A DNA stretch of 64,000 nt, from NCBI RefSeq assembly GCF_044704955.1, contig NC_091990.1, forward strand, positions 176,700,001 through 176,764,000. The letters are read 5' to 3'. The notes beneath the pieces are model-generated. The model was not told the DNA's origin, made no database searches, and was given only the letters and a program-made list of their open reading frames with translations. The translations under genes were made by a program, and so were the position numbers. Of the stretch, positions 6,537-59,523 are shown one piece after another. The stretch is from Pristiophorus japonicus. Its lineage: Eukaryota. Position 1 is the first letter of the stretch. The number at the start of each line of letters is the position of its first letter.

Positions 6537-6653
6537 CTTTATAATAGAGCCGCATGTAGAGGAAAATTCCTGTTGCTATTACTGCAACAGAAATAATAAT
6601 GCTCGCAATGATGCTTCCAACTATTGATCCTGTGGCCAGACGAATTTCTGCTT
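6537..6653 (-). CDS. Gene B transmembrane exon (EAEIRLATGSIVGSIIASIIISVAVIATGIFLYMRLYYK)
   Basis: ttacag| acceptor, G|gtaaac donor, 117 nt; same length as, and aligns without gaps to, the gene A TM exon. Confidence 0.9.
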
Positions 6654-12600: not shown

Positions 12601-15600
12601 GCATGGCATTGTTACACTGCAATGTGCAACAGTTTACAGTATTGTACATAAATCAGCTTACCTAAAACCTCTAGCTTTATTGTCTTAGAGGCTTTATAAT
12701 TTGGTGAAATAAAAACATCACATCGATACTGTCCAGTGTGTTTAAATGTGACACTTTTTAGCAACAGTGACATGTTTCCACTTAGAATTGAGCTTTCTGA
12801 CAGCTCAGCTTCTTTCCATTGCTCATTTATTACTCCATGCATGTAGACAAAGGGCTTTGAATTTCCAGTGTCACTAGTGAAAGCCCATAAAACTCCCAAG
12901 TTGTTTGCGCTCAGTGTAGACCCGGTGAGTTCAGCAATTTCGCACTGTAGAAGTCCATTTTCATGAAACATTACTTCCACAGAAGGTTGACTCACTTTCA
13001 ACTCCAACTTTCCATCTGCAGATTCAATAAGAACATGATGCTGTTTTATTAGCGTCCACCATACAAGTGTGCCGATATTTACTTCAACTAACATAGGTGG
13101 TGCGGCAAAGACCATTTGGTCCAACTGTTCCACACAAGCCTCTCCCACCCTTCATCTAACCCCAACAGCATAACCCTTCTATTCCTTTCTCTCTTATGTG
13201 ATTATCTAAATATTCCAAAAACTTCAGCTCATTGTGATCTCTGCTGCCATATCACAATTCGCACCAAGTCCCGCCTCAACCTTGATCCACCCCTGTGCTC
13301 GCTGACCTTCAATAGTCCGGCAATGCCTCAATTTTAAAATTATCATCCTTGTTTTCAAATCCCTCCAACCTATACCATATATGTATAGCCCTACAACTCC
13401 TCCAATTTTGGCCTCTTGCACATCACCGATTTTAATCACTCCAAAATTTTTGGCCATGCCTTCAGCTGCCGACGCCCAAGCTCTGAATTTCCCTCCTAAA
13501 ACCTCCCTGCCTCTCTCTACTCCTTTAAGACATCCCTTAAAACCCACCTCTTTGAACAAGCTTTTAGTCAGCTGTCCAAATATCCCCTCAGTGTCAAATT
13601 TTGTTTGATAACACTCCTGAGAAGTGCCCACCCACCTTCTAAAGGCAGAATCCTTGCTGGAATGTGCTCCCAGTACCTCACCCAGGTAATCATTCATTCA
13701 CAGACAAGCCAAAAGAGCAAGTTTCAATCAGAAGAGGAAAACATCGTAGCTGAGCAACTTTGGAGGGTATCTTCTCACCAAGTTTCTCCCAAAAGTGAGT
13801 CCTTGCTCGGCTATAGCTCCACAGGCACAGCTGAACTGGACTTTGCCTATCAAGTAGTCACTATTTACCTGCGAGCCACAACAGTGAGTGTCAGCAGCTG
13901 ATACGACCAAGGAGAACATCACAGGTAAGCCTAATCCTGTCCTCACCCAACATTCACACACGCAAGATTCCAGTAACCCCAAACAGCAATGAGAATGCTA
14001 GACAATTTCAAATTCTCCAACTCCCAGTGCTGAAGCCATAAGTACAATCCTACTGCCGATTGAGCACTGGTAAAACGTTGTGTGCGCGCGAAGGGGAAGG
14101 GGTCGAGGGAGTGGGGACGGAGGGGCAACGCGCGGGGGGTCGCAGGTCGTGCGCGGGGGAACGGGGGGCGCACGCAGGGACCGGGGGGAGATCGTGCGTG
14201 GGGGAACGGGGGGCCGGGGGGGGGGGGGAGGTCGTGCGCGGGGCGAAGGGGGGCGCGCGGGGGGACGGGGGGGCGGGCCACGGGGGGGTTGGGGAGACGC
14301 GCGCCGTGACAGGGGGGGGGGGGCGCGCGGGGACGGAGGGGGTGCGGGGACAGAGAGCGGGGAATGGTGAGAGGGGAATAGTGACAGAATGGGCTTAGAG
14401 AGAGTGGGTATAGAGAGAGGGTGGGGAAGGAAGGAAGGATGTGAAAGCCTTGGAGAGGGTACAGTGGAGATTTACTAGAATGGTACGAGAGATCAGGTAC
14501 TTCAATTTTGTGGAGAAACTGGCATTTTGCTCCTTAGAGTAGAGAAGGTAAGGGGAAGTAAAAACACAAAATGCTGAAAATACTCAGCAGGACAGGCAGC
14601 AACTGTGGAGACACAAGCAGAGTTAAGGGTTCTGGTCGATCATCTTGCGTCAAAACTGGAAAAGATTAGAGATGCAACAGGTGTTAAGCAAGTACAGAGG
14701 CAGGGAAAGGAGGGAGGGGAGGAAAGAAAAGGGAAGGCCTGTGATAGGCTGCAAGCCAGGAGAGATTAAATGACAAACGGGTGGCTGGATATAGGACTAA
14801 TCATCATAGGCAGTCCCTCGGAATCGAGGAAGACTTGCTGCCACTCTTAACACGAGTTCTTAGGTGGCTGAACAGTCCAATATGAGAACCACAGTCCCCG
14901 TCACAGGTGGGACAGAGTTGTTGACGGTAAGGGTGGGTGGGACAGGTTTGCCGCACGCTCTTTCCGCTGCCTGTGCTTGATTTCTGCATGCTCTTGGCGA
15001 TGAGACTCGAGGTGCTCAGTGTCCTCCCGGATGCTCTTCCTCCACTTAGGGCGGTCTTTAGCCAGGGACTCCCAGGTGTCAGTGGAGATGTTGCATTTTA
15101 TCAGGGAGGCTTTGAGGGTGTCCTTGTAACGTTTCCTCTGCCCAGCTTTGGCTCGTTTGCCGTGAAGGAGTTCAGAGTAGAGCGCTTGCTTTGGGAGTCT
15201 CGTGTCTGGCATGCGAACTATGTGACCTGCCCAGCGGAGCTGATCAAGTTGCTCAGTGCTTCAATGATGGGGATGTTAGCCTGGTCGAGAATGCTAACGT
15301 TGGTGCGTCTGTCCTCCCAGGGGATTTGTAGGATCTTGCGGAGACATCGTTGGTGGTATTTCTCCAGCAACTTGCGGTGTCAACTGTACATGGTCCATGT
15401 TTCTGAGCCATACAGGAGGGCGGGTATTACTACAGCCCTATAGACCATGAACTTGGTGACAGTTTTGAGGGCCTGGTCTTCAAACACTCTATTTGCGGTT
15501 AAGAAAGCAAATGGCATGTTGGCCTTCATAGCAAGGGGATTTGAGTACAGGGGCAGGGAGGTGTTGCTACAGTTGTACAGGGCATTGGTGAGGCCACACC

Positions 15601-18600: not shown

Positions 18601-19678
18601 CATTGAAAGTTGGCATGCAGGTACAGCAGGCGATGAAGGCGGCAAATGGCATGTTGGCCTTCATAGCTTGGGGATTTGAGTATAGTAGCAGGGAGACCTT
18701 ACTGCAGTTGTACAGGGCCTTGCTGAGGCCTCACCTGGAATATTGTGTTCCGTTTTGGTCTCCTAATCTGAAGAAGGACGTTCTTGCTATTGAGGAAGTG
18801 CAGCGAAGGTTCACCAGACTGATTCCCAAGATGGCAGGACTGACATATGAGGAGAGACTGGATCGACTGGGCGTGTATTCACTGGAGTTTAGAAGAATGA
18901 GAAGGGATCGCATAGAAACATATAAAATTCTGACGGGACTGGACAGGTTAGATGCAGGAAGAATGTTCCCGATGTTGGGGAAGTCCAGAACCAGGGGACA
19001 CAGTCTAAGGATAAGGGGTAAGCCATTTAGGAGAGGTGATCTTATCGAAACGTGTAAGATTATGAGGGGGCTCGACAAGGTGGATGCAGAGAGGATGATG
19101 GGGGAGACTAGAACTAGAGGGCATGATCTTAGAATAAGGGACCGTCCATTTATAAACAGAGGTGAGGAGGAATTCCTTATCTCAGAGGGTTGTAAATCGG
19201 TGGAATTCGCTGCCTCAGAGAGCTGTGGAAGCTGGGACCTTGAATAAATTTAAGGCAGAGATAGAGAGTTTCTTAACCAGGAAGGGGTTATGGGGAGCGG
19301 TCTGGGAAGTGGACTTGAGTCCATGATCGGATCAGGCATGATCGCATTAACTATCATAGGTACAGGAGTAAGCCATACGGCCCCTCGAGCCTGCTCCGCC
19401 ATATAATAAGACACGGGGAGAGGGCGGGTGGGAAAGAGCTGGTCACTTGTCACCATTTTAGCCCCGGCTGCTTCAATTCCATCTCCAAGCCTTCTTCCCT
19501 GGGACCCCGCCGAGCCCCAGCACAGCCCCACCCGACCCGACCCCGGTCAGACCGTGTGATTCCCAGCCTCCAGGCCCGAGGCCCAGGAGCCGCGCACTTT
19601 ACCTGAAAGCCGCATCAGAGCGGCCAGCGCGACCACCGCCGGCACCAGGAGCGGCAGCGAGTCCCGGCTCGGGCCCAT
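6537..19678 (-). CDS. Gene B (5' part): B7/B7-H6(NCR3LG1)/tapasin-like receptor, SP-IgV-IgC1-TM; continues beyond the window start
   Basis: Four exons (19603-19678, 12662-13015, 9414-9740, 6537-6653) joined by phase-1 GT-AG introns into one frame; no stop in the TM exon. Confidence 0.88.
6740..6985. repeat. 121-bp tandem duplication (2 copies)
   Basis: Unit starting AACTATATAAAAGAGTAAAG at 6740 and 6861, nearly identical. Confidence 0.92.
6990..8730 (+). mobile_element. Old CR1 fragment hosting a MITE
   Basis: Degenerate VPQGS / KxAGDTK / LYRTL...QF motifs. Confidence 0.7.
7184..7923. mobile_element. MITE (PIF/Harbinger-like) with ATT TSD
   Basis: Imperfect TIRs, ATT on both sides; removing it restores the CR1 sequence (EDI-RKCADWA). 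Confidence 0.7.
8832..9235. repeat. Direct duplication of 107 bp (8832-8938 and 9129-9235)
   Basis: Near-identical AATAAACAAATTACAATTAACC...GGTTATTG copies. Confidence 0.9.
9414..9740 (-). CDS. Gene B extracellular Ig C1-set exon
   Basis: ggcag| acceptor, G|gtcagt donor, 327 nt; LGCQLSGYYP...EW...NPDGTCNVT...FQCRVTH, both canonical Cys present. Confidence 0.92.
10031..11025. mobile_element. Non-autonomous Harbinger-like DNA transposon, CTA TSD, inside a CR1 fragment (~9900-11380)
   Basis: TIR GGGCCCAAGTTTCCAC / GTGGAAACTTGGGCTC; CTA duplicated; CR1 frame IEKHL-ETKNII resumes. Confidence 0.85.
12662..13015 (-). CDS. Gene B IgV-set exon
   Basis: ctgcag| acceptor, G|gtaagc donor, 354 nt; LQCE...LGVLW...GNMSLLL...HTGQYRC (B7/tapasin-type GNxSL motif). 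Confidence 0.92.
14085..14420. repeat. G-rich low-complexity CpG tract in gene B intron 1
   Basis: Many G5-G11 runs with GCGCG motifs. Confidence 0.75.
14800..15490 (-). mobile_element. RTE-clade LINE 3' fragment
   Basis: YRAVVIPALLYGSETW and [15 protein letters not shown] motifs; ATGATGA-type tail. Confidence 0.85.
15495..16165 (+). mobile_element. Young CR1 3' fragment
   Basis: [11 protein letters not shown]...RTRGHSL; (TTTCTATG)n tail. Confidence 0.9.
16270..16770 (-). mobile_element. Penelope-like element fragment (GIY-YIG endonuclease)
   Basis: FTYSSFNLVYCIHC...LYTWETKRRLGDRFAEH. Confidence 0.8.
16785..18100 (-). mobile_element. CR1 3' fragment with an RTE-tailed short element inserted (~17115-17690)
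   Basis: Similar to ~1335-2340; the insert ends GGGACTGCCTATGATGA like the RTE tail. Confidence 0.7.
18100..19350 (+). mobile_element. CR1 RT/3' fragments (two subfamilies joined near 19030)
   Basis: [20 protein letters not shown]; RGDLIET...TRGH segment appears twice. Confidence 0.85.
19603..19678 (-). CDS. Gene B signal-peptide exon (MGPSRDSLPLLVPAVVALAALMRLS/D)
   Basis: GTGATGG start context in a CpG island; 25 codons + 1 nt; hydrophobic core; CAG|gtaaag phase-1 donor matching the V exon. Too short for the ORF track. Confidence 0.85.
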
Positions 19679-42370: not shown

Positions 42371-43017
42371 TGTGCGTGAGGCTAGATGCCGTACCAGTCG
42401 GGTATTCCACTGTGATGATCATCTAGACATAATCCCATCTTCATCCAACATCCTCACTTGCACTTACCAGTCGGAACAATTGGATAGTAATCAACGAGAA
42501 TCCCTCCCTAACCCAGGGGTACACAGAGTTGAAATATAGCAGTAATTAACTGATCCAAGATCTGCTTTTTCAACACAATCTGAAAATTGAACCTAGGTCC
42601 AACGTTCTCGCCAAGCCGCATGGCGGTCTGGAGGTGCCACACAGGCCACACGACAATGTGAATGGGCCACGTAGCCGCGTACCTAAAACAAAAATTAGAG
42701 GGAACATCGCCTGGAACCCCTGATTTTAATTGCTCACTACATCAGATGGTACATTTGCCTATTGAGCCACTGAAATCAAAAGGGTCAATACAAACTCCAA
42801 GAAGGTAATTAAAATCCCATTTTTGAATGGGCTAAAAATTTAAAGCTGGGTTTTTCATTTTAATATCTACCTGCTTCATAAAACACTACTTGTCAAATTT
42901 CCAAATGTTAAAAGCATAATGAAGTAGTTTGTTTTGCCTGCGGGAACAATTTAAAATAACATTTGGACTGTCTAAAATTGACAGACAAAACAGGTGCAAC
43001 AAAATGTTATATTTACC

Positions 43018-43331
43018 TTAAAATTCCAAAGAAAAAGTTTGTTCCACAACTTCTTTAGTTTCTGAGTGAGTAACCTTGCAACTGATTACTGTGCCCTGAT
43101 CAGATGCATCAGGAGCGAATTCTATTTTTGTTACTGAAGAGAAGAGACCATTTGCAGCAATTTCAGGCTTTGTATTATCCACTGGTCCTATGAAAGGCTG
43201 CTTTTCTTTGAACCACTTAACTTCAATTTCTTGAGGTGCATAATCAGTCAGTGAAACAGTGAACGTTGCCACTTTGTTTTTCTCTGGACGTGTTGGGTTG
43301 CATCTGATTTCAGACACAGTGGGAGCAGAAC
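43018..43331 (-). CDS. Gene A post-TM Ig C1 domain 6, last coding exon (B-strand Cys absent)
   Basis: ttttaag| acceptor; [19 protein letters not shown]...NGLFSS...ISCKVTHSE...LEF-TAA, then G|gtaaat. Confidence 0.88.
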
Positions 43332-46300
43332 CTTAAAACAGAATGGAATATGCAAATACTGAGTTTTCTGTGGACTGAAATACATTTACCAGAATGTTGA
43401 GACAAATTAAGATAACTTTGGCAAACTGAATTCTTTAATTTGGAAAATTCAGTTATTATACTGATACGGTGCAGCTGGGACCACGAGTGACGAAGGTAGG
43501 ACCGGAGGAGGATGTGGAAGAGCCACAACTGCAGATAAATATTCAACAGGACACCATTTTTTAAAGACTAAAAATAGATGTCATCGGCCCAGATGATATG
43601 CATCCCACAATACTGAAGGACGATACTAAAAATCTTTGGGAATGGGAATTCTTCCAAGTTGACTAGAAAACTGCAAATGTTAAAAATTTTGTTCAAGAAA
43701 GTGAAAAAAATTCAGGGAATTAGTCTTGCCTCAATTGTGGGGAAACATATACACACAGTCCATAAGACATAATTAAATGACTCAACAATTAGAAAGGCAT
43801 GGACAGTCAGCAGGAGTTTACAAAAGGCAAGTTGTGTTTTGGGTGAGCCCAAAAGGTAGTACCTCTGCATGGCAAACATCTGCACCCAGACGGGTGGTTT
43901 TAGTTATCATCATCGGCAGTCCCTCGGAATCGAGGAAGACTTGCTTCCACTCTTAAAATATGAGTCCTTAGTTGGTTGAATAGTCCAATAGTCCCTGTCA
44001 CAGGTGGGACAGATAGTCGTTGAGGGAAAGGGAGAGTCTGGTTTGCCGCACGCTCTTTCCGCTGCCTGCGCCTGATTTCTGCACGCTCTCGGCGATGAGA
44101 CTCGAGGTGCTCAGCACCTTCCCAGATGCACTTCCTCCACTTAGGGCGGTCTTCGGCCAGGGACTCCCAGGTGTCAGTGGGGAATGTTGCACTTTTTCAG
44201 GGAGGCTTTGAGGGTGTCCTTGTAACGTTTCCTCTGCCCATCTTTGGCTCGTGAAGGAGTTCCGAGTAGAGCGCTTGCTTTGGGAGTCTCGTATCTGGCA
44301 TGCGGACAATGTGGCCTGCCCAGTGGAGCTGATCAAGTGTGGTCAGTGCTTCGATGCTGGGGATGTTTGCCTGGTTGAGGACGCTAATGTTGGTGGTTTT
44401 AGCAGCAATTGGTCCTGATGACACACCCAGCTCTCACTTAAGGCTCCAAGCACCACACCCGGGACCTTGCCTCAGCTGGCATGCTAAACTTGGAGAGAGT
44501 AGTCAAGGAGTAACGATTGAACACGTGTCGAATTCCAGTCCTCTGAAACCAAACATTCAGCCCCGTCACTGCTGATCTGACAGATGGGAATTTAGTAGTT
44601 GTGATTGACTAACTGAATTTCTTTGACTAATTCACATTTCCTATCAAGTTATACTGGCTCCCTGCCATAACTACAGCGGGCAGAAGAAAATTGGATGGAA
44701 AGCCATTCCACTAGCCTCCTGCATTGTCACTTCCATGATTTCCCACTGAAACCCAGTCATCAGGTGTCCAATCCATTCACTTAAATATGATCAGAAGTAT
44801 TGTCGAGAGGCAAAAGAAAGAAATAGGACTTTTGACTTTTTTCTCATAATTTTACCACAGCAATGTTGGATGGTATGAATGCCTTATCTTATTGGTGAGC
44901 TACTGCTGTCGCGTGTGATGGTGGCGGTTTAAAATTTAAAGGACCCAAGGGAGGGCAAGAGACTGTAGAGGAATTAATTGCACTCCCTGACTCCAATTTT
45001 ACAAAGTTTAAAAAAAGGCTACTTCTCTTAATTCAACATTTCTTAATTTTCCTGTAATCTTATTAATTCTACTATCAAGGTCCTGTACCCATCTAGGTCC
45101 ATTTACAATGAATAGAAATACATTAGAAACAAACATTCAAGCACAAATTGCCTTCTTCAAAAATTAAATTTTATTGATAACTATGATCAGTTGTTACCTA
45201 AATCAATCATTATTATAGATTCCAGCATAATTAGGGTTTTACACCAGTTTAACGTACCTGGAAGTGTTAAATATAGCTGTTTTTTTATACTGTTGGATAA
45301 AGCTTTATGTTCCAATACAAAGGCAAATTCCTTATTGTGATCCAAAGCTGTTGGTGTCAACTTCAGGCAGGAAACTAACCGATAATATCCACCTTCTTCC
45401 TTCTCAGGGTCGGTATTTTTGACTCCATTATGGACAGGCTTGTCATCCATTAGCCAGTTGGTTGAGATTATTTTTGGAGAAAAATTACTTACAACACACT
45501 GAAGAAGAAGAGGCTGGCCATATGATGGAATTTCTGGCTCAAGAATGATGTCAGAAACTATTGGAATTCCTGTTTGAAAAGAAGAAGAATTGTTTACAAG
45601 AATGACAATGAGCAATATGTACCTGGTGTACCTGTAGTCAACCCTGCCCCTCCCAGACCATGAAGTATTGTAATTTGATGAAATTCTGCGGACCAATACT
45701 ATAGCACAATAACAAAGTAAACTAACAATCTGAAAGATGGCACTAATACTATTTTAAATTGTATCCATGTTAGCAAACCAGTCTGACATGGTAAATGATT
45801 GATGCATACTTTAAAACATTTAACTCCTCGTTATTGTGGGTAAACAACAACAAACGGGTATCAACTTTATTACCGTTGTAATCTTAAATTCAACATTAAA
45901 AATCTGTAATTTTAAAGTTAACTTGGCCTCTCAACATTCTACTTCTCAACTTTCAATCCCTTCGTTAGTTTATTGCAAACAACCTGAAATTGGACTCTTC
46001 AAATACTGTATTACAAACAATTAACGCTTTCAGACAATAACAAAGCATTTATTTTACCTTTACGTTCTATTACTATCCAAGACTGTTTTAACCATCAACA
46101 TTTTGATGCAGAAAAGACAAAGGCTTGGATTTCACAATCAGCGCCGAAATGACAGCGCTTGCTGCTGACCTCGAAGAAAGCTGCCCACAAAGATCTAGCG
46201 ATCTCTGACATGGATGTCACCTTTCCCAATGTTAAATTCATTCTGGCGTCACCTATAGGGGATCTTCAGCAACAGTGATGTCATCAAGCAGGCTAAGCAA

Positions 46301-49300
46301 CCAATCACATTGAAGAATACTCAAACAGCAAACCAGGAAGTAAAATGTACTTTTTAATCATTTTACAGAGAATGAAATAAAGATTGAAAGCTACACATGG
46401 GATTAAGAAACTCGTATCATAAACAAACTTAAAAAATATTTTTTTTACATTCCAGAAATATAAAATTAGTTTTTCAGGCCCAGAGAGGGTTTTCACCAGT
46501 AATTATGACTTATACACTGTTTAAAAACCCAGTTACACCTCATTCAACAAGGTTTAACTTTTTGGGGTGTTTTTACAGCAAAATTAGAATGTAAAAAATG
46601 GAGGTTCACGTTAATTCAAGTGTTTTATAAAGATTTCTGTCTGCGGGGACTTCAACAGTGCACCCTGTGGAGGTGCAGGGAATCACTGAAAGCAACTTCT
46701 GGATTTTTGCGATTAACTGCGCATGTGCGGACGCCAGAAGTTTGTGTCAGTTTCACGAGGAATGCTGACAGTTTCACCGTCATTCCAACTGCAAGTTCCA
46801 GGCCAGTAAGTTCTGAGGCTAAATGAAATTGTGCATTTACTGGAATTTCAGAATAACTTACCCATTATATGTTGATCTATGAGCTAGTAAGAGTAGTACT
46901 GTAAATCAAGATTAGTGCAAGGAAGGTTTAATATGTTGATATTCAAAGAGCTCAATTTAAAGGCAAAATTTTTGCATCACCCATTACTTATAATAATTCC
47001 CCTTGGGTCGGTTTGCCCCTTAATTCTTAGTCCATGGTAGTAACATTTGATATTTTCAGCTGCTCGCAATGTACTGAAGGTGATCAGTCACTTACTTTGG
47101 CTTGATTCCTGACCATGTTTTGCCTTTTATCCCGTTTTCAGAATTAGTCAATCTCTGAATTCCCCCATCTCCACCCCAATGCCTAGAATTCCAGGCATGG
47201 TTGGTCTGTCAGGTAAAACTACTATGCTATTTATTCAACCTATTCCAAATTATGAGCATTCTGTGTTGTGGCCCTGGAAGCAGCTAGGTTGAGTCTCCCA
47301 AAAAGATTAATCATTCTTGGCTAAATTCAAACCTAGGCGGTGGAAGGACAATACTAACCAAACACTTCTTCTCAGTTTTTCTAGGTTTTTAAGCCCAAGT
47401 AAATTGTAATTATTCAAATCAGTCAATAATCAAGAAATTGTGTGTTTATCATGGATCTTAGCAACCCAGGTATTACTCAGATATGAGATGATCTGAAGTA
47501 TCATACCAGGCCTGTGCGTGCTAAAACCAAGATCAACTCGTAGATTTGATAAGATACAGTACAGGTACAGTAGCATAGTGGTTATGATATTGGACTATTA
47601 ATCCAGAGGCTTGGACTAATAATCCAGAGACAGAAGTTCAAATCTCAACATGGCAGCTAAGGATTTATTTTAGTTAAATAAATCTGGAATTTAAAAATAA
47701 GTTAGCACCAGTAATGGCGACCATGAAACTACCAGATTGTCGTAAAAACACAACTGGTTCACTAATGTCCTTCAGGGAAGGAAATCTGCCGTCCTCGCCC
47801 GGTCTGGCCTATACGAGACTCCAGACCCACAGCAATGTGGTTGACTCTTAACTACCCTCTGAAATGGCGTAGCAAGCTACTCAGTTGTACCAAATCGCTA
47901 CGACAGAGTCAGCACTGTGGGAGTACTTTCATCACAAGGCGGCGGCTCAACCCCACCTTCTCAAGAGCAATTAGGGATGGGCAATAAATGCCTGCCATGT
48001 CAGTGACGCCCACATCCCATGAACGAATAAATGATTTGAGCTCAATATTACCACTGTATAATAATTGGGTTACTTGCTTATAAACATTCATAATTATTAA
48101 TATTTTAACAGCTGTTTTGATGCAAAAATAAAAATAGTTTATGGTTGAATATAAGTATTAGAATTTCAAAATAACTCTAATCCAACCAGGACCCCATTTC
48201 ATACTCATCTAATAAAATAGAAAGGGAGTGGAAAACAAAAAATATTACTATAAAGTATATATTCCATAAGCAAGAGTGCATCAACATTTTCTGTCAAAAT
48301 TATTTTGATACAACATATTTGCGTTAAATTTGCATTTAGTTACTTAAGTATGTGAAAATTTGTAGAAAACAAATTGAAATGTGCAGCTTACTAGAAGTTT
48401 AGTGTTATTGCAGTCCAGTATAGAAACAAATATGCATTTAATTCATACCTCCAAGATGTAAGGTGAAACAGGACCTTGAAGGTCTGTGTGAAGTTGGGAA
48501 ATGAAGAACCTCAACTTTGAATTCAATTTGATGATATTCTGGCTTAATTAACAATTTCCATTGACTTTCACAGCAGAAATAACCAGTTTTTTCATCTATA
48601 CGGGGCTCCGCAGAAATGATTCCTGGATCATCAGTTCTCTCATCATTTTTGAACCACATGAACATGGAGTCCTTTGGATAAAAGCCATGTGCATAGCATA
48701 CAATTGTTGCTTCTTTTCCTGCTGCTGGGAATTCTGGTTCACATCTTATGTATCCTACTAATGGAGAAGATACTGTAACAACACAAAAAAAGTTAGATGT
48801 AGTATCTTGCAAGCTACTTCAATAACCCTCAGAAAATAAACCAGCACGGAAGTGGCCAAAACTCGCGGGAGGACAGAAGATTGGGAAACTTTTAAAAGCC
48901 AGCAAAGAATGACTAAAAAAATGATTAAGAAAAGGAAGATAGACTATGAAAGTAAACTAGCACGAAATATAAAAATAGATAGCAAGAGATTCTGCAGGTA
49001 TATAAAAAGAAAAAAAAAGAGTGGCTAAAGTAAATCTTGGTCCCTTAGAGGACGAGAGCAGGGAATTAGTAATGGGGAACATGGAGATGGCAGAAACTCT
49101 GAACAAATATTTTGGATCAGTCTTTACGATAAGAGGACACTAACAATATTCCAACAGTGGATAGTCAAAGAGCTATAGGGGGGGAGGAACTTAACACAAT
49201 CACTAAGGAAGTGGTACTCAGTAAGCTAATGAAACTAAAAGGTAGATAAATCCCCTGGACCTGATGGCTTGCATTCTAGGGTTTTAAGAGGAGTAGCGGC

Positions 49301-52300
49301 AGGGATAGTGGATGCATTGATGTAATTTGCCAAAATTCCCTGGATTCTGAAGAGGTTCCAGCAGATTGGAAAACTGCAAATCTAACACCCCAATCTAAAA
49401 AAGGAAGCAGACAAAAAGCAGGAAACTATAGATCAGTTAGCCTAACAACTGTGGTTGGGAAAATGTTGAAGTCCATTATTAAAGCAGGAGCAGGACATTT
49501 GGAAAAGCATCATTCAGTCAGGCAGAGTCAGATGGATTAATGAAGGGAAAGTCATGTTTGACAAATTTGCTGCAATTCTTTGAGGATGTAACAAATAGGG
49601 TGGATGTGGTGTATTTGGACTTCAAGAAAGCATTTAATAAGGTGCCACATAAAAGGTTACTGCACAAGATAAAAGTTCACGGGGTTGGGGTAATATATTG
49701 GCATGGATAGAGGATTGGCTAACTAACAGAAAACAGAGAGTCAGGATAAATGCTTCATTCTCGGATTGGCAATCAATAACTAGTGGGGTGCCACAGGGAT
49801 CAGTGCTGGGACCCCAACTATTTACTATCTATATTAACGACTTGGATGAAGGGACTGAATGTAACGTAGCCAAGTTTGTTGACAATACAAAGATGGGAGG
49901 AAAAGCAATGTGTGAGTAGGACACAAAAAACCTGCAAAAGGACATAGGCAGGCTAAGTGAGTGGAGTATAATGTTGGAAAGTGTGAGGTTATGCACTTTG
50001 TCTCGAAGAGCAAGTTATTATTTAAATAGAGAAAAATTGCAACATGCTGCAGCGGGATCTGGGGGTCCTGGTGCATGAAACGCAGCAAGTGATCAAGAAG
50101 GCCAATGGAATCTTGGCCTTTATTGCAAAGGGGATGGAGTATAAAAGCAGGGAAATCTTGCTACAGTTATACAGGGTATTGATAGAAACATAGAAAATAG
50201 GTGCAGGAGTAGGCCATTCGGCCCTTCTAGCCTGCACCGCCATTCAATGAGTTCATGGCTGAACATGCAACTTCAGTACCCCATTCCTGCTTTCTCACCA
50301 TACCCCTTGATTCCCCTAGTAGTAAGGACTTCATCTAACTCCTTTTTGAATATATTTAGTGAATTGGCCTCAACAACTTTCTGTGGTAGAGAATTCCACA
50401 GGTTCACCACCCTCTGGGTGAAGAAATTCCTCCTCATCTTGGTCCTAAATGGCTTACCCCTTATCCTCAGACTGTGCCCCCTGGTTCTGGACTTCCCCAA
50501 CATTGGGAACATTCTTCCTGCATCTAACCTGTCTAACCCCGTCAGAATTTTAAACGTTTCTATGATGTCCCCTCTCATTCTTCTGAACTCCAGTGAATAC
50601 AAGACCAGTTGATCCAGTCTTTCTTGATAGGTCAGTCCCGCCATCCCGGGAATCAGTCTGGTGAACCTTCGCTGCACGCCCTCAATAGCAAGAATGTCCT
50701 TCCTCAGGTTAGGAGACCAATACTGTACACAGTACTCCAGGTGTGGCCTCACCAAGGCCCTGTACAACTGTAGCAACACCTCCCTGCCCCTGTACTCAAA
50801 TCCCCTCGCTATGAAGGCCAACATGCCATTTGCTTTCTTAACCGCCTGCTGTAACTGCATGCCAACCTTCAATGACTGATGTACCATGACACCCAGGTCT
50901 CTTTGCACCTCCCCTTTTCCTAATCTGTCACCATTCAGATAATAGTCTGTCTCTCGGTTTTTACCACCAAAGTGGATAAACTCACATTTATCCACATTAT
51001 ACTTCTACACATGGAATACTGTGTAGTTTTGGTTTCCATATTTAAGAAAGGATATATTTTTGCTTTGGAGGCAGATCAGAGAAGGTTCACTAGGATGATT
51101 CTGGACATTAGGGGGTTGACTTATGAGGAAAGGTTGAGTAGGTTGGGCCTCTACTCATTGGAATTCAGAAGAATGAGAGGTGATCTTATCGAAACGTATA
51201 AGATTATGAGGGGGTTTAGTAAGGTGGATGCAGAGAGGATGTTTCCACTGATAGGGGAGACTAGAACTAGAGGGCATAATCTTAGATTAAGGGACCGCCC
51301 ATTTAAAACTGAGATGAGCTCTCTGAGGGTTGTAAATCTGTGGAATTCGCTGCCTCAGAGAGCTGTGGAAGCTGGGTCATTGAATAAATTGAAGACAGGT
51401 AAAGACAGTTTCTTAACCGATAAGGGAATAAGGGATTATGGCGAGCGGGCAGGGAAGTGGACCCAAGTCCATGATCGGATCAGCCATGATCGTATTAAAT
51501 GGCGGAGCAGGCTCGAGGGGCTGTATGGCCTACTCCTGCACCAATTTCTTACGTTCTTATGTTCACTTCGGGACCAGCGGCGAATGCATTCACCTTACTT
51601 ACCCACTGGAACCAGTTTAAGGTCAGTTTTTCTGGATTTTGCGATACTTTCGTGCTGGAATTCACAAGTTAATGTCTTCCCCAAATCTTCCCTAACTGGA
51701 ATGAATTTTAAACGACTTATAAAGAAATAAAGGTGATCCTTTCCAAAGACTGCTTCAGTATCAGTATCCATTTCGTCCATGACGATATTATCCTTTTTCC
51801 AAATAACTTTAATATCTTTTGGAAAGAAGGAATATATTCTACAAGATGCGTGTGCATATTCATCTGCAATTGCGGCTTCTGGCATCAGTTTTATATTATC
51901 ACATTTTGGGATAGCTGAGCAAAAAAGGAAAATACAAATTGAAGAATTTTGAAAATAACAGATTTTTAAAAACTTTAAATTGAATCATTGAAAAGAAAGT
52001 TAACAGCTTAAACAGAAACTGATATTCAGCTCGACAGGTACACTGTCACAAGCTACAGTACAAATGTTTGATATTATACATCTGTATCATCACCCCTCCA
52101 CAAAATCCAACAAACCAGAAGTAAAAATAAAAAGCTACTCCACTATCACTGGAAAGGTCCATTCCTTGCACCTCCCCGATCACTTCTGATTGTGCCCGCT
52201 CTTGAAGGGATATTCTAACCACCCACAGGAACTGTATTCTGTGAGATCCACAGAATCGAACAATAAGTGTCGTATACCAACACACTGTTAAGCAAACAGC

Positions 52301-55300
52301 TGGTTTTGGAAAAGTGTGCATTGTAATGAAACCACAGTCAGGTTTCAATATATTTTAGACCAGAGAACAAAACACTTGCTTATATTCAAGCTTTGCTACA
52401 TCAAGAGGTCTGTTTTGGTGCAGAGATCAGGCAATTTGTACACCACTGTGCCTACCCATTTCAAACTAACAAACGCAGTGGAACAGATAGAAGTAACCCT
52501 GACTATTCTGAATCCTGATCTCATGCTATTAGGTACACGACAGAAGAAAGCAGCAGACCCCTCTGAAAAGTTATGTAGAGGACTACTTGGCCACCTTATG
52601 GAACAGACAATCAGTCCTGGGATTGCAACACAAGTAATGTTAAGTGATCGTTCTTAGTGCTAACTAACCACCCAAATCAATATTCTTTTAACCTCTTTAA
52701 AAATACACTCATTGTTCATTCTGTGCGGATTTTGAGAACACTTAAATATTGCAGCTAAGATTGCAAAAATATATTTTAAACAAAATGATCAGAGAAATGA
52801 TGACAGTACCTTTTATATTTAATTTAACCTCTTTTTGTATTTTGGAAGCCGTGGCTGGATGCATCACTTCACAAATATACACTGTGTTATGGTCTTCACT
52901 AATGGTTGGTATAAAAGCTAGAACACTGGCAACACTGTACGTGTCGTCTTCGTATTGCTGCTCAGTTATACTGTGTAAATATTTGGGTTGCTCGGTTTCG
53001 TTCCCAGCAATGAACACTGGTTTCCCTGGCTCAAGTTTCACAATTTCTTTCAATTTGTTGTTCTGTTTTGTGTACCAAATGATAGTCAGCGGTCTTGGTT
53101 TAAATCCATTAATTGGACAGGTCACAGCGAGCGCTTCTTCATGAATAATATGAGGAGGTATCACAATATCCGTCATCCTTGGTTCAACTTTTTTTTTTTT
53201 TAAAAAGGGAAAAAATATTACGTATGTTTACAAAGTTCTCAGAATTCATTGAATATCGACTACTTAAAAACACATTTAAAGAGTTTATGTTATGTCATAT
53301 CAAGTATGAAAAGTGATTCAGCAATCCTGGCAAATAAAGCTGCTAACACTGCTGTACAAGGTCCAAACTGGGTATTGGCAGAATGGTCAGGTGCTACAAA
53401 CCAGGAATATACTTTTAAAATAAAAACAGAAAATGCTTGAAATACTCAGCAGGTCAGGCACTTGAGAGAAAGAGAAACAGAGGTAACGTTTCAGGTCAAT
53501 GAATGTTCACCAGAATCGAACCGAAATGTTGGGTTGAACTTTCCGGATTGGTGGCACGTGCGAACAGTGGCGGGTCAGGTGGGAAAGTTGTTATTTTTGA
53601 CAGGGGGTCGGAAACTCGCTGTCATCTTGCTCCCACGTGCCTTTCCCCCAGGTGCATCTGTCTTTGTGGATCCGACCCGACCAGCGGCAGACCCAATTGA
53701 GATAATTATCAGACACTTAAGAGTCTTTTTTCACTTTTTAAATTTCCCTGCATGGTCATGTGATTCATGCATCTTGGAGTGTGTGCGCTCGCGCTCGCGC
53801 GCGCGTGCGGCTTTTCTGCAGAGGCCTAAAAAGATCCTAACTAGCTGAGTTACACTGCTGCAAATTGATTGGGGAAACTGTGGTTTTTCAACTTAGGCCA
53901 AAAAGAGCAGCCTGCTCCAAAAAAACGGCACAAATCACTGGGAAAAATTGAGCCCAATAATCCTGTCATAATTAATTTTACCATTGCATCACTTCATTTA
54001 TGAAAGTGTATTTGAGGCATTTTAAAAATAAAATTACAAGTAAAAATTGTCTCCTAAAAATTGCTAAAAAAAACATTAAAAATTTCAATATGAAAAAATG
54101 CCAAAAAGGTCCTGTAAACATTGCAACTAAAAATGTAACGCCTGTGGCACATTAAAAGCTCCTTCGTGTGCAGCTTTCCTTGCTCTCATTCTCATCAATT
54201 CACAAAGGATAAAGAGGAAACCTGGCACAAAAGTTACAGAATTGTGCTCGATGTGGGCATAAATGACACCAAGACACAAAATGTGCACAAATACTTCATC
54301 TGACTAAAAGCACAAGAATGCTGAATTATAAACCAGTAACTAATATAGAACCTGCTCTTCAAATTTTGTGATCCGACCGCATCTGTTGCACAACTGCTCT
54401 TAATGCAAGGTTAAAATTAAACACTAGGGGGCCGAAATTGCCCCTTTTTGAGCCATCAGTGAAGGTGCAGAAAGCACTCACTGCTCGGTCGAGTCACCGA
54501 CAATCGCGACATTGCCCTCATTTTGGGGGGGGGGGGGGGGCGGTGGACGCTCCTGCCCCGACGGAGTCCCCGCCCCGTCGACCCCTTACTGACTAGTGGC
54601 GACCCCCTTTCTGCCCCACATGGGAAATTGCCCCGTGGGAGTGGATCGGTGTCCCCAACAGCTTTCCCCTGTGGGGAGCTGCCTGTGACTGGGCAGCACG
54701 TCCGCCCATTAAAGGGGAGTGCGCACTGCCGCGGCTGCCATTTTATTTTAATTGTCGGCTGACTCAGAGGTCAGCCCGACAATGGCGGCCGCAGGTTCAG
54801 CCGAGCCGCCAACAGACAGCTTGGCAACCCCTCTAGGGTGCCAGACCGTTGGCCCGGCCGAAACCCTCCCTGGTGGCCCAGTGGATGCCACTAACGTGGC
54901 TGCAGAGTTCGCAGTGGCCCTCCCCTTTAACTGAAGTGGAGGGATGTTCATAGAAACATAGAAAATAGGTGCAGGAGTAGGCCATTCGGCCCTTCTAGCC
55001 TGTACCGCCATTCAATGAGTTCATGGCTGAACATTCAACTTCAGTACCCCATTGCTGCTTTCTCGCCATACCCCTTGATCCCCCTAGTAGTAAGGACCTC
55101 ATCTAACTCCTTTTTGAATATATTTAGTGAATTAGCCTCAACAACTTTCTGTGGTAGAGAATTCCACAGGTTCACCACTCTCTGGGTGAAGAAGTTCCTC
55201 CGCATCTCGGTCCTAAATGGCTTACCCCTTATCCTTAGACTGTGACCTCTGGTTCTGGACTTCCCCAACATTGGGAACATTCTTCCTGCATCTAACCTGT

Positions 55301-58300
55301 CGAACCCCGTCAGAATTTTAAATATTTCTATGAGGTCCCCTCTCATTCTTCTGAACTCCAGTGAATACAAGCCCAGTTGATCCAGTCTTTCTTGATAGGT
55401 CAGTCCCGCCATCCCAGGAATCAGTCTGGTGAACCTTCGCTGCACTCCCTCAATAGCAAGAATGTCCTTCCTCAGGTTAGGAGACCAAAACTGTACACAA
55501 TACTCCAGGTGTGGCCTCACCAATGCCCTGTACAACTGTAGCAACACCTCCCTGCCCCTGTACTCAAATCCCCTTGCTATGAAGGCCAACATGTCATTTG
55601 CTTTCTTAACCGCCTGCTGCACCTGCATGCCAATCTTCAATGACTGATGTACCACGACACCCAGGTCTCTTTGCACCTCCCCTTTTCCTAATCTGTCACC
55701 ATTCAGATAATAGTCTGTCTCTCTGTTTTTACCACCAAAGTGGATAACCTCACATTTATCCACATTATACTTCATCTGCCATGCATTTGCCCACTCACCT
55801 AACCTATCCAAGTCGCTCTGCAGCCTCACAGCATCCTCCTCGCAGCTCACACTGCCACCCAACTTAATGTCATCCGCAAATTTGGAGATACTACATTTAA
55901 TCCCCTCATCTAAATCATTCATGTACAGTGTAAACAGCTGGGGCCCCAGCACAGAACCTTGCGGTACCCCACTAGTCACTGCCTGCCATTCTGAAAAGTA
56001 CCCATTTACTCCTACTCTTTGCTTCCTGTCTGACAACCAGTTCTCAATCCATGTCAGCACACTACCCCCAATCCCATGTGCTCTAACTTCGCACATCAAT
56101 CTCTTGTGTGGGACCTTGTCGAACACCTTCTGAAAGTCCAAATATACCACATCAACTGGTTCTCCCTTGTCCACTCTACTGGAAACATCCTCAAAAAATT
56201 CCAGAAGATTTGTCAAGCATGATTTCCCTTTCACAAATCCATGCTGACTTGGACCTATCATGTCACCTCTTTCCAAATGCACTGCTATGACATCCTTAAT
56301 AATTGATTCCATCATTTTACCCACTACCGATGTCAGGCTGACCGGTCTATAATTCCATTTTCTCTCTCCCTCCTACGTATCAGCGCGACGCTGCTGACAC
56401 CGACCGACATCCGTCCAACTCCACATCGACTTCCGCCCCGAAGAAGAAAAATTATTTGAAGAACTCAATTTCGAACCTCTCTCCGCCCCATGGATTTGGG
56501 CGCAGAAAAATCTTAAATAATGGTGGGTGCGCCTCCTTTCAGTAGGGGGGCATTTCCACCCCATGGAATGCAGTGGTATAAGAGGAGGCAGCTCAGAATT
56601 TATAGAATGAGTTGAATAAAATACATAAATGGTCAGAGCAATTTGGGACTTAAGTGTCAGTGACAAGTTTTCCAATTCGTGTAATGGTGGATCGTTTTAC
56701 CCATAATCTTCTGGAAACCATTCTATAACAAGTTCGTTTCATCTGTGTCAAAATAAATGTATACATATATCTCTTCATAAACAAAAATTCTTCAGTTATG
56801 TTCGCTTGGTATCACTTGTAATTCACACTTACTTCCTTCAACACTCAGCTTGATCATCTTAGTAATAGGCCTTCCAAGAGTGGTATGTATGACTTTAACT
56901 CGGAGGATAGCTTTATCATCTTTATAAATGTCAGGACATAGTGAAGCTTTGCAGTTCACACTGGAGCTACCATCTTTGTTGTGTTTCACAGCTGGCATCT
57001 CAAACTTGAAGGATCCATCAAGTTGAAGTCCATTATTTGAAATAAGTTTGTGCTGGTCATCTGGTACAGGTTCTAGTGGGTTCCTCGTTTCATGAGTCCA
57101 CTGGTAAATCACTTTTGGGCTATTTTCCTCTTTTCTTTGCAGTAACCAGTGAACAGAAATGTTCTCAGGCTTATACCCAGAAATCTGACAATTCAGAACA
57201 GCCTCTTGCAAATGTATAAACCGTGGAGGTTTGCTTATATCAGAAACTTTTGGAGGAACTAAAAAAAATGTTTAAAAACATTTAGAAATGTATCCATTCT
57301 TTGCCACAAGGTCTTCCTATTACTTCAAAAACATCAGCATGAATCCATTCTAAGACTAAACATAACTATTACTGAAATAAAAACACCTACATGACAATAC
57401 AACAGTTGGTTTAATAGATCGCTAAATATGAAATGAAATAAGTTGTTCCTTGTTGAAACAAATTTGCCTTGCCCATAATAATCATCAGCAACTCTAGTTA
57501 AAATACAAGTATGAGAGGTAGAGAGACACAAATAGACAGATTAGAGACAAAAAGAGAAGCTGAGGCAAAGGGAAGGAAACATCAAGACTCAAGGACAGAA
57601 ATCAGTGAAGAAACACAACAGCAGAGATCAGTAATGCATGATGGATGCCAGAAACAAAGCGAGAAAGATCAAGAAAAAGCTAGACACAGACAAATCAGGT
57701 CGGCACACAGATCTGGGGAGAAAGATAAGGGGCATAGAGATCTGGCAGAAAAACACCACAGTGATAGTGAGACACAAACCTCCAAAGGGAGAGAGATGAC
57801 AAAATAGAAACACATCAACTGCGCAAAAAACAGACTTACAGCGATGAATGGACAGATCGATACAACCAAATGAGAGACAAAGATCAAGAGATCAGAGTAC
57901 TTATCATGAGTAGCATCATGGGAGATCCACCATATTGGTATCTTAATAAAAATCTTACACCTTCACACATGCCCTGCACCACTTGACTTCCAGCAATTAC
58001 GGTCTTCTCACACTTTATGAATTGCTATGTTCACATTTACTATGGGTTTTGCCGATGTAAACAAGTCACTCTACAATCTGGCAACCGGGTTCCCACAAAT
58101 CGCTCAAAATGCTGAGAGAAATATTTTCGCATCTAACATTATTTCCCTCGGTAACTAATACTTTTAATGTCAAAATAAGGATTTAAATAAAATATTTTTT
58201 TAATTACATATTTCACATTAACATGATTAAATTTGTCCATTGAATTGTCATGTCTTTTAATGCCTTCATTAAAGTTTTTATTTGAAGATCTCAGCCTCTC

Positions 58301-59523
58301 TTAAAGACTAGGTTTGGATTTGATCTCTTTGCTCGGAGCTATGACTTTCAGTTGAATTTGATTTCTGCAGTCTGACCATGAGCAGTGCATCGAATTTCCC
58401 AGACTACATCAGTACCAGTCAGCTGTACCAATGGAATATTTTCCATCAGCTTCTAGCACTTTCTGCCCAGTAGCATTTTTTCAAAAAAAACAATGGAATA
58501 AAGTTCAAAAGTTTAACTTAAGTAACACTTTATTTTGATTTTATTTTAAAAAGACTGTCTTTGTGAGTGGAAAAGGTGATTAGTTTAACTGTAGTACAAT
58601 ATGCTGTGTTTATAAACTTCTGAACATACATTAAATTAAATGAGAGTATAAGTGAGAGCACAGAGAGAGGTGAGAGCATGAGAGCTGGGGATCTGGGGGA
58701 CAGGGGTTGGGGAGGGGGAACGGTTTGTTTTCTAGCTGCTTTTCTCACTCTGGATTTCTACATTCCCTGCTCCTCAGTTCAGATGTTACTATTTCATTTT
58801 GAGTCAAACACTGAAGCCAGAAGTGCATGATATCTTACCAATATTTACATTTTCCTCTTTTTATGGACAATGTAGTTTTAAACGGAAGTGTTCAAAAGTA
58901 AACACATGCAAAGTAATATTCCGTCAAATGCAGAATAAAAAACTTTTTTTAAACTGTGGAGTATGGTAACTTAAAACTGGGAAGAAAAGTCTTTGTTCAC
59001 AGTACTCTTTATTGACTATTTGCAAGTTATGTTTATAAACAAATGCTTCATTTTATTTTAAACCTGAAGTTTCTTATTTGAACAGATCCACTGTGTTGGG
59101 TCTCCTTGCCTACAAGCTGCAGTGACACTCATGGGAAGCTGCTCATTACGCACAATGCAATGGGGCCCATAATTTTAGACTGACCTCTGAACAAACCTGC
59201 ACTGCCCAGCCCCAAGAGAAGCACTTTAAACAAAAACACTGACAGAGATCAGCTAACTCGGTGCAGATCAAGGATTATCTGATAGCTCAGCTTCACATGG
59301 GGAAATGTATCAAATTAATTAGACACAGCAAAAGAGATCAAGACCATTTTGAAAGATTATATGATGTGCTTCTTACATTTCTGAAGTGTACAGAAGGATA
59401 TTTTACCTTTTCGGAAATACTTTAGATACGTAAAAAATCCAACGCCCAAGATCGCCATACACATCAATACACTAACAATTACACTTCCAGCTATTGTTCC
59501 CGTTGGTGTAACAAATTCTGGTT
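43018..59523 (-). CDS. Gene A (3' part): Ig-superfamily membrane protein, TM exon + six C1-set Ig exons + stop; 5' exons lie beyond the window end
   Basis: Seven exons (59407-59523, 56833-57258, 52810-53187, 51603-51914, 48449-48772, 45258-45569, 43017-43331), all AG/GT flanked, phase 1-1, lengths multiples of 3. They splice into one open frame ending TAA at 43018-43020. Confidence 0.88.
43905..44395 (-). mobile_element. RTE 3' fragment
   Basis: [25 protein letters not shown]. Confidence 0.85.
45258..45569 (-). CDS. Gene A post-TM Ig C1 domain 5 (F-strand Cys absent)
   Basis: aaacag| acceptor, G|gtacgt donor, 312 nt; [17 protein letters not shown]...[11 protein letters not shown]. Confidence 0.9.
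46122..46804. mobile_element. MITE-like element
   Basis: Imperfect TIRs GGCTTGGATTTC / GCAAGTTCCAGGCC; internal motifs resemble 7184-7923. Confidence 0.5.
47565..48030 (+). mobile_element. tRNA-derived SINE
   Basis: Pol III box A (TAGCATAGTGG) and box B (GTTCAAATC); 3' tail matches the LINE end at ~33690-33760. Confidence 0.75.
48449..48772 (-). CDS. Gene A post-TM Ig C1 domain 4 (F-strand Cys absent)
   Basis: ttacag| acceptor, G|gtatga donor, 324 nt; [20 protein letters not shown]...EFKVEVLH. Confidence 0.9.
48833..51560 (+). mobile_element. CR1 LINE with an inverted younger CR1 (~50183-51008) inserted
   Basis: RT motifs on + strand, interrupted by a minus-strand copy carrying the TAGAAACATAGAAA tail. 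Confidence 0.88.
51603..51914 (-). CDS. Gene A post-TM Ig C1 domain 3
   Basis: gctcag| acceptor, G|gtaagt donor, 312 nt; [17 protein letters not shown]...LTCEFQHES. Confidence 0.9.
52810..53187 (-). CDS. Gene A post-TM Ig C1 domain 2
   Basis: 378 nt, G|gtactg donor, A-rich acceptor; [10 protein letters not shown]...IIW...DDTYSV...YICEVMH. Confidence 0.87.
53531..53955. mobile_element. MITE-like element
   Basis: Imperfect TIRs GGGTTGAACTTTCC / GGAAAAATTGAGCCC. Confidence 0.45.
54428..56562. mobile_element. GC-rich MITE split by a CR1 insertion
   Basis: TIR-like GGGGCCGAAATTGCCCC / GGGGCATTTCCACCCC on either side of the CR1. Confidence 0.55.
54950..56370 (-). mobile_element. Young 5'-truncated CR1 with uninterrupted 427-aa RT ORF
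   Basis: ORF 55041-56324 nearly identical to the copy at 21731-23198. Confidence 0.92.
56833..57258 (-). CDS. Gene A post-TM Ig C1 domain 1 (long insertion, F-strand Cys absent)
   Basis: Polypyrimidine-ag| acceptor, A|gtaagt donor, 426 nt; [10 protein letters not shown]...VHW...DGSSSV...LRVKVIH. Confidence 0.87.
59407..59523 (-). CDS. Gene A transmembrane exon ([39 protein letters not shown])
   Basis: cccacag| acceptor, G|gtaaaa donor, 117 nt; ~24-aa hydrophobic stretch followed by KYFRK basic stop-transfer. Confidence 0.88.

Follow-up and report, generated by a model that had tools for sequence, protein, structure and literature searches.

The window analysed here is a 64,000-nucleotide stretch of the sawshark Pristiophorus japonicus (NC_091990.1, positions 176,700,001 to 176,764,000) that carries the transmembrane exon and the following exons of a gene we call gene A. 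The ten exons of gene A make up a 2937-nt frame, and the translation matches letter for letter a 978-residue database protein of the same species recorded as uncharacterized (P0001), to which D1, the first domain after the membrane, is 100% identical. P0001 is laid out as a leader, a V and a C1 immunoglobulin (Ig) domain, one transmembrane segment and six further C1-set domains, D1 to D6; the exons for the leader, V and C1 lie past the window end (Table 1). All six tail exons are open on the minus strand, have AG/GT ends and are in phase 1. Each tail domain scores over the 21-bit cut-off of the Pfam C1-set profile PF07654 (22.7, 36.7, 45.4, 26.8, 57.4 and 44.6 bits for D1 to D6), with D1 and D4 aligning to only part of the profile. 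The F/Y-x-P motif, the C-strand Trp and the His are found in every one of the six, in agreement with an earlier note, made from the sequence alone, which described these residues, the reading frames and the splice sites as intact.

Contigs from three runs (X1 to X3) connect these exons. A 2993-nt contig present in X1 and X3 joins C1, the transmembrane exon and D1 to D6 in order with GT-AG ends, while the joint between the transmembrane exon and D1 was seen in all three runs and that between C1 and the transmembrane exon in two of three. The runs belong to one study and come with no library record, and their spliced nature rests on contigs that skip the introns exactly. The location of the six domains after the transmembrane segment, a premise of the earlier note, is thereby shown at the transcript level. 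D6 ends in a stop codon and the neighbouring gene B starts with a leader of its own, which assigns the six domains to gene A, downstream of its transmembrane segment; the same two features rule out a reading of D1 to D6 as the ectodomain of gene B.

The canonical cysteine pair linking strands B and F is missing from D1, D4, D5 and D6 and intact in D2 and D3. At the codon level we confirmed the earlier description, in which D1, D4 and D5 lack the F-strand Cys and D6 the B-strand Cys. The V and C1 domains of gene A itself, outside the window, have both cysteines and are the proper control. The earlier note had instead compared the tail with the V and C1 domains of gene B, which do keep both cysteines; gene B is, however, no unrelated control, being a tandem paralogue with six post-transmembrane domains of its own, of which D4 and D5 likewise lack the canonical cysteines.

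Table 1. Coding features of genes A and B, numbered from the first letter of the window.
Feature	Position	Strand	Remarks
Gene A leader exon	72348-72282 window-equivalent (C14:176772283-176772348)	-	beyond window end
Gene A V exon	69379-69014 window-equivalent	-	beyond window end
Gene A C1 exon	64554-64234 window-equivalent	-	beyond window end
Gene A transmembrane exon	59407..59523	-	single hydrophobic span, then KYFRK
Tail domain D1	56833..57258	-	C1-set with long low-confidence insertion; B-strand Cys present, F-strand site Val (GTT, 56899-56897)
Tail domain D2	52810..53187	-	both canonical Cys present
Tail domain D3	51603..51914	-	both canonical Cys present
Tail domain D4	48449..48772	-	F-strand site Val (GTT, 48515-48513); FCC cysteines variable across orthologues
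Tail domain D5	45258..45569	-	F-strand site Phe (TTT, 45321-45319)
Tail domain D6	43017..43331	-	B-strand site Val (GTT, 43257-43255); stop TAA 43020-43018
Gene B leader coding stretch	19604..19678	-	own start
Gene B V exon	12662..13015	-	both Cys present
Gene B extracellular C1 exon	9414..9740	-	both Cys present
Gene B transmembrane exon	6537..6653	-	post-transmembrane exons beyond window start

Two further observations concern the gene A transcript. A splice donor lies one base past the D6 stop codon (43017-43015); the main contig has 447 extra bases that do not lie on 42500-43016, and a separate low-depth contig covers 42666-43008, so that two 3' ends are possible. Position 45306, in the D5 exon, differs from the assembly by one base in X1 and X3, not in X2, and is likely an allele.

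To place the cysteine pattern in a wider context, we collected 183 proteins and retained 84 as V-C1-transmembrane-D1 after removing six duplicates or isoforms and the rows without that order; organism names are known for only 20 of 147 new representatives. Both canonical cysteines occur in 81 of 83 V domains and 84 of 84 C1 domains of this family; the corresponding tail counts are 3/84 for D1, 53/56 for D2, 58/61 for D3, 0/50 for D4, 10/43 for D5 and 4/38 for D6. A generic profile likewise returned both cysteines in 84 of 84 pre-transmembrane C domains versus 141 of 329 post-transmembrane ones, a contrast beyond what chance would give, although the count, made with seven duplicate rows removed, is on rows that are related by descent. 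By single site, the cysteine is present at D4-F in none of 50 proteins, at D6-B in 4 of 38 and at D1-F in 7 of 83, versus 56 of 56 at D2-B and 38 of 38 at D6-F. In three tandem C arrays that we read as Ig heavy-chain-like from their sequences (P0115, P0158 and P0175), all 41 of 41 domains keep both cysteines, and in a clade with three tail domains the pair is kept in 24 of 28 post-transmembrane domains.

On a FastTree tree of the family, a single change accounts for the four ectodomain cysteine sites, as compared with 32 or more for the twelve in the tail. At least 17 of these fall at D1-B (to W, F, V, I, S or Y), with one each at D1-F and D6-B and none at D4-F. The replacing residue is hydrophobic in 223 of 232 cases. 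Because D4-F is never a cysteine among the 50 proteins and D1-F and D6-B changed only once each, these look like ancient fixed swaps to bulky hydrophobic residues, and the losses in this gene appear to be mostly inherited from before the split between sharks and bony vertebrates. On this alignment, in which the loss is conserved across orthologues, the pattern is one of old core repacking and not of decay. The proposal in the earlier note that selection on the disulfide had been relaxed therefore holds in part: the canonical cysteine sites have changed far more often in the tail than in the ectodomain, but gene A does not record four fresh relaxations.

Named family members come from chimaera, rays, sharks, sturgeon, reedfish, coelacanth, lungfish, a caecilian, salamanders, frogs, the lizard Lacerta and the marsupial Dromiciops. 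Tail length varies: six domains are retained in carpet sharks, rays, sevengill, sawshark and chimaera, five in Lacerta and two in Dromiciops, and in horn, mackerel and ground sharks the gene A orthologue stops after D4 in the records found (P0002, P0006, P0010, P0011 and P0024). D1 is the domain retained in the shortest members and reaches seven copies in some, which points to D1 as the core unit of the tail. Four proteins in the shark-paralogue part of the tree (P0058, P0072, P0087 and P0120) have tails composed solely of repeated D1, in two to seven copies. Two further clades share the overall plan. One, with three tail domains (P0109, P0123 and relatives), extends to bichirs and at least one teleost (Prochilodus). 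The other (P0066, P0079, P0096, P0102 and relatives), found in frogs, reedfish and coelacanth, has a V-C(-C)-transmembrane layout followed by up to 14 C1-like domains, in which Cys-paired and Cys-free units alternate and some pre-transmembrane domains also lack the pair. In P0105, V-C1-transmembrane-D1 is followed by a tachylectin domain (E 6e-30), which may be a genuine fusion or a merged gene model.

P0001 contains one hydrophobic span, with a 19-residue mean of 2.37 as compared with a maximum of 1.26 in the tail, and the leader exon, the single span and the positive charge after it predict a type I membrane protein with one transmembrane segment. Across the family, net charge is greater after the span than before it in 72 of 84 proteins. 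N-glycosylation sequons occur at 1.23 per 100 residues in the ectodomain (observed/shuffled 1.54) and 0.57 in the tail (1.03), and their density is higher in the ectodomain than in the tail in 75 of 84 proteins. From these predictions, V and C1 would very probably lie outside and D1 to D6 in the cytosol in the main form. IGSF1 also has Ig domains after an internal hydrophobic segment, and there a further internal signal returns the later domains to the lumen; P0001 differs in having no second hydrophobic segment, and we rejected an IGSF1-like second signal on that ground.

The tail domains are conserved to a degree similar to the ectodomain. With selection judged by protein identity, D4, D5 and D6 are 76, 76 and 81% identical to those of Heptranchias versus 78% for V and 74% for C1, and D6 is 64% identical to that of chimaera versus 53% for V. 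In the AlphaFold model (mean predicted local distance difference test score, pLDDT, 84.4) all six domains have strands and are predicted as beta-sandwiches, with pLDDT mostly 85-92 outside the D1 insertion. Pseudogene decay is ruled out, as the earlier note had argued: gene A gives transcripts that are spliced in frame, and D4 to D6 are conserved like the ectodomain. Modelling of a D1-D3 homodimer gave a score of 0.00, which counts neither for nor against such an assembly.

Several lines of evidence connect the locus to B7-H6 (NCR3LG1), the human NKp30 ligand. The top Protein Data Bank sequence match of P0001 is human B7-H6 (E 1.8e-30), and its predicted ectodomain overlays B7-H6 at template modelling scores of 0.83-0.90, depending on the target. 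A whole-chain fold search returned mostly generic multi-Ig proteins, and the ESM Atlas only unnamed chordate Ig clusters. In a quick IQ-TREE analysis of V-C1, from which human B7-H6 was left out, the gene A clade and a tetrapod clade fall within a 104-row group (Shimodaira-Hasegawa-like approximate likelihood ratio test, SH-aLRT, 93) that is unresolved inside, with the gene B type just outside it. The label NCR3LG1 is applied by NCBI to the axolotl, Discoglossus, Lacerta and Dromiciops relatives.

In the 264 kb searched around the window there are three tandem paralogues on the minus strand. The upstream one has V, C1 and transmembrane exons and seven tail domains, as compared with the six of gene A; gene B (P0048) has its six post-transmembrane Ig exons 3.4 to 34.2 kb below window base 1. 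About 28 kb past gene B, tail to tail with it, lies a single-exon Kir6.2/KCNJ11 gene. A search for ABCC8 with an ABC-membrane profile gave no match on this contig among 88 of 128 candidates scored, which says nothing on ABCC8 either way. In humans, NCR3LG1 is reported as a neighbour that shares a domain with the ABCC8/KCNJ11 enhancer (PMC8065166). Because the best structural-database match is B7-H6 and KCNJ11 is the neighbour, the genes belong to the B7-H6 lineage: judged by homology and gene order, gene A is a shark co-orthologue of NCR3LG1 and the three tandem genes are shark members of that lineage. Genes A and B differ widely in their V domains, yet their leaders are 76% alike, and the gene B leader of Stegostoma is nearly identical to the gene A leader of Rhincodon, so that gene conversion of the leader exon is possible.

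Despite the shared type I V-C ectodomain and KCNJ11 neighbourhood, the shark gene differs from human B7-H6 in its tail. The human protein is described as 454 residues long; its tail is homologous to Gag polyprotein and contains ITIM (immunoreceptor tyrosine-based inhibitory motif), SH2 and SH3 motifs (PMC2715080). In place of this Gag-like tail, the shark has six C1-set domains and three tandem paralogues; its 690-residue tail contains no [ILVS]xYxx[LIV] ITIM-like motif and no enzyme domain. A Gag-like ITIM tail is not required for orthology.

We consider it probable that D1 to D6 are the spliced post-transmembrane part of a shark B7-H6 family gene and form a cytoplasmic chain of six C1-set domains that acts as a protein-binding scaffold. 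The signal peptide and one stop-transfer span are predicted to place V-C1 outside and D1 to D6 inside. In a cytosol without oxidative folding, the B-F pair would serve only core packing, and in early jawed vertebrates single cysteines could have given way to Val, Ile, Leu, Phe or Met at sites where packing tolerated the change, the new residues being conserved thereafter. In D2 and D3 the pair would persist as part of the buried core, as it does in many titin domains. Outside the cell, V-C1 would be presented to an NKp30-type receptor as its ligand, the role described for human B7-H6 (PMC2715080, PMC6514059). The tail may bind cytosolic partners or other copies of itself and thereby set clustering, surface display or reverse signalling. 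With neither an ITIM-like motif nor a catalytic domain, binding is its likely role, and by analogy with butyrophilins, the closest working parallel, we tentatively propose, as a suggestion that could fall either way, that it is a modular binding scaffold for an NKp30-type ligand. A broader and rather doubtful conjecture is that the ancestral jawed-vertebrate B7-H6 was a two-way signaller with six to seven cytosolic C1-set domains, a fold associated elsewhere with the oxidising side of antibodies, T-cell receptors and MHC. On this view it would stand at the head of a so far undescribed class of receptors, with at least three clades and as many as 14 tail domains, whose Ig tail detects or binds some cue inside the cell and switches how visible the ectodomain is to natural killer (NK) or T cells; in a marsupial the tail would have been reduced to two domains, and in humans a Gag-like module of retroviral origin would have taken its place.

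Several observations weigh against a cytosolic tail whose cysteines were lost on account of its location. D2 and D3 lie on the tail side of the membrane as well, yet about 95% of proteins retain the pair in them, and a frog-rich sister clade lacks it in 10 of 47 pre-transmembrane C domains. The sequon signal is weakened by a reversed control motif that is also enriched in the ectodomain (1.36), and the P0001 tail itself has three sequons, at N323, N495 and N799, of which the one in D1 recurs in most shark orthologues. The RNA evidence all derives from the single study. In addition, RefSeq isoforms of Carcharodon and Cetorhinus (both X2) skip exactly the transmembrane exon, by which the same domains would enter the secretory path. 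Given the intact pairs of D2 and D3, which domain loses a cysteine does not follow from a reducing environment by itself, and the reducing cytosol invoked in the earlier note predicts no particular domain. Its further claim, that the losses independently support an intracellular location, survives in a milder form: the loss of the pair before the membrane in the sister clade means that cysteine loss makes a cytosolic location more likely but does not prove it.

The sister clade also lends itself to a different account, in which the cysteine changes are selected, domain-specific specialisations, repacking each core for an interface or for mechanical pliancy, with the compartment incidental. We regard this as a genuine possibility, although a minority one, and it can coexist with the cytosolic scaffold. 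The losses are site-specific and nearly fixed at D4-F, D6-B and D1-F as opposed to D2-B and D6-F, and Cys-free and Cys-paired domains of the sister clade alternate in a two-domain repeat. Within the same 84 proteins, however, the ectodomain shows one change versus at least 32 in the tail, and the many replacements at D1-B look like true relaxation. The exon-skipping isoforms, together with P0046, P0056 and P0084, which show no transmembrane segment between C1 and D1, would instead fit a main form that is secreted or luminal, through skipping or an inverted span, with alternative disulfides such as B-E in D1 and with sequons in use. D1 of gene A does have an extra E-strand Cys (56953-56951), and such a cysteine is present in 41 of 49 D1 proteins that have the B-strand Cys and lack the F-strand one, but it is also found in 20 of 27 that lack the B-strand Cys as well (Fisher p 0.37). 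Because it is kept in those 20, the E-strand Cys is not retained for a B-E pair. The earlier note had raised the extra cysteines of D1, D4 and D5 as possible partners, and covariation across the family did not favour this: the D4 FCC and D5 VSC cysteines differ between orthologues, on which ground we rejected alternative disulfides through them, and none of the extra cysteines looks like a replacement for the lost bond. The sawshark contigs carry the C1-transmembrane and transmembrane-D1 joints, and the 15 of 32 joints listed include no C1-D1 joint, in contigs that drop rare forms; the tail sequons are at chance level. A secreted or luminal main form is thus unlikely.

C1-set domains are typical of proteins of the major histocompatibility complex (MHC) pathway, and V-C1-transmembrane also resembles tapasin-related protein (E 4.6e-13), so that the protein might be a tapasin-like chaperone of the endoplasmic reticulum or an adaptor of intracellular membranes, its tail coupling to cytosolic machinery. 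This is very unlikely given the far stronger B7-H6 match and the locus beside KCNJ11; moreover, V directly follows the leader with no N-terminal tapasin domain, and there is no C-terminal dilysine motif. Nothing beyond the unusual architecture speaks for an artefact or decay, whether as separate genes fused in annotation, as part of the gene B ectodomain or as pseudo-exons. The spliced contigs linking the transmembrane exon to D1 to D6, the D6 stop, the separate gene B leader and the recurrence of the domain order in 84 proteins from chimaera to marsupial make this exceedingly improbable.

A membrane-bound scaffold of cytosolic C1-set domains has partial counterparts among known systems. The state of butyrophilins is controlled through a cytosolic B30.2 domain. 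Like gene A, these are B7-related V-C-transmembrane ligands of lymphocyte receptors with a folded cytosolic domain, a likeness we treat as analogy only. Oligomers of BTN3A1/BTN2A1 are described as dissociating when phosphoantigen binds (PMC13457854). Their cytosolic module is B30.2 and not Ig, and no B30.2/PRY-SPRY Pfam domain was found on P0001. Titin and its kin have I-set domains in soluble cytoskeletal proteins. Titin resembles the shark tail in having tandem Ig domains in a reducing compartment with B- and F-strand cysteines in only part of them, and differs in that the shark domains are C1-set and sit on a membrane ligand; CysB and CysF are reported in 43 and 42% of titin Ig domains (PMC5766482), where the pair is present in 141 of 329 domains here. 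Shark UrIg2 is described as a non-rearranging molecule with V and many C1 domains, of which nine or more precede the transmembrane segment, with the B-F disulfide present in those that have been solved (PMC12227049); the C1 array of shark B7-H6 instead follows the membrane.

The ectodomain and the locus are of known kinds, and most of the shark and fish records are uncharacterized. A search of titles and the starts of abstracts, in a coverage that excludes key papers on B7-H6 evolution, found no report of a B7-H6 with cytoplasmic Ig domains and nothing on the cysteine pattern, range or function of the post-transmembrane Ig tail. Papers on B7-H6 evolution may mention extra Ig domains in Xenopus B7H6 tails, and the chance that the architecture has already been noted descriptively is perhaps slightly less than even. 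The main finding is the conserved post-membrane C1-set array, more than the cysteine loss itself. Antibodies, T-cell receptors and MHC molecules are built from C1-set domains, which are normally extracellular and stabilised by a disulfide. If the cytosolic location is right, the family is a natural experiment, from chimaera to marsupial, on the C1-set fold without its disulfide, and the recurring swaps to Val, Ile, Leu, Phe and Met bear on antibody domains that need to fold in the cytosol. B7-H6 would have been bidirectional ancestrally, with the Gag-like human tail a late replacement, and the array would offer a concrete handle on what the B7-H6 tail does.

Elsewhere in the genome, a weak D2-like exon on another contig (C11:188736695-188736970, E 9e-5, 30% identity) may belong to an ordinary C1-set gene or to a sister-clade member. 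Within the window, reverse-transcriptase fragments of long interspersed elements (LINEs) occupy the D3-D4 and D1-D2 introns of gene A (48840-51560 and 54950-56372), and at ~50165-51003 one LINE copy is nested inside another in the opposite orientation.

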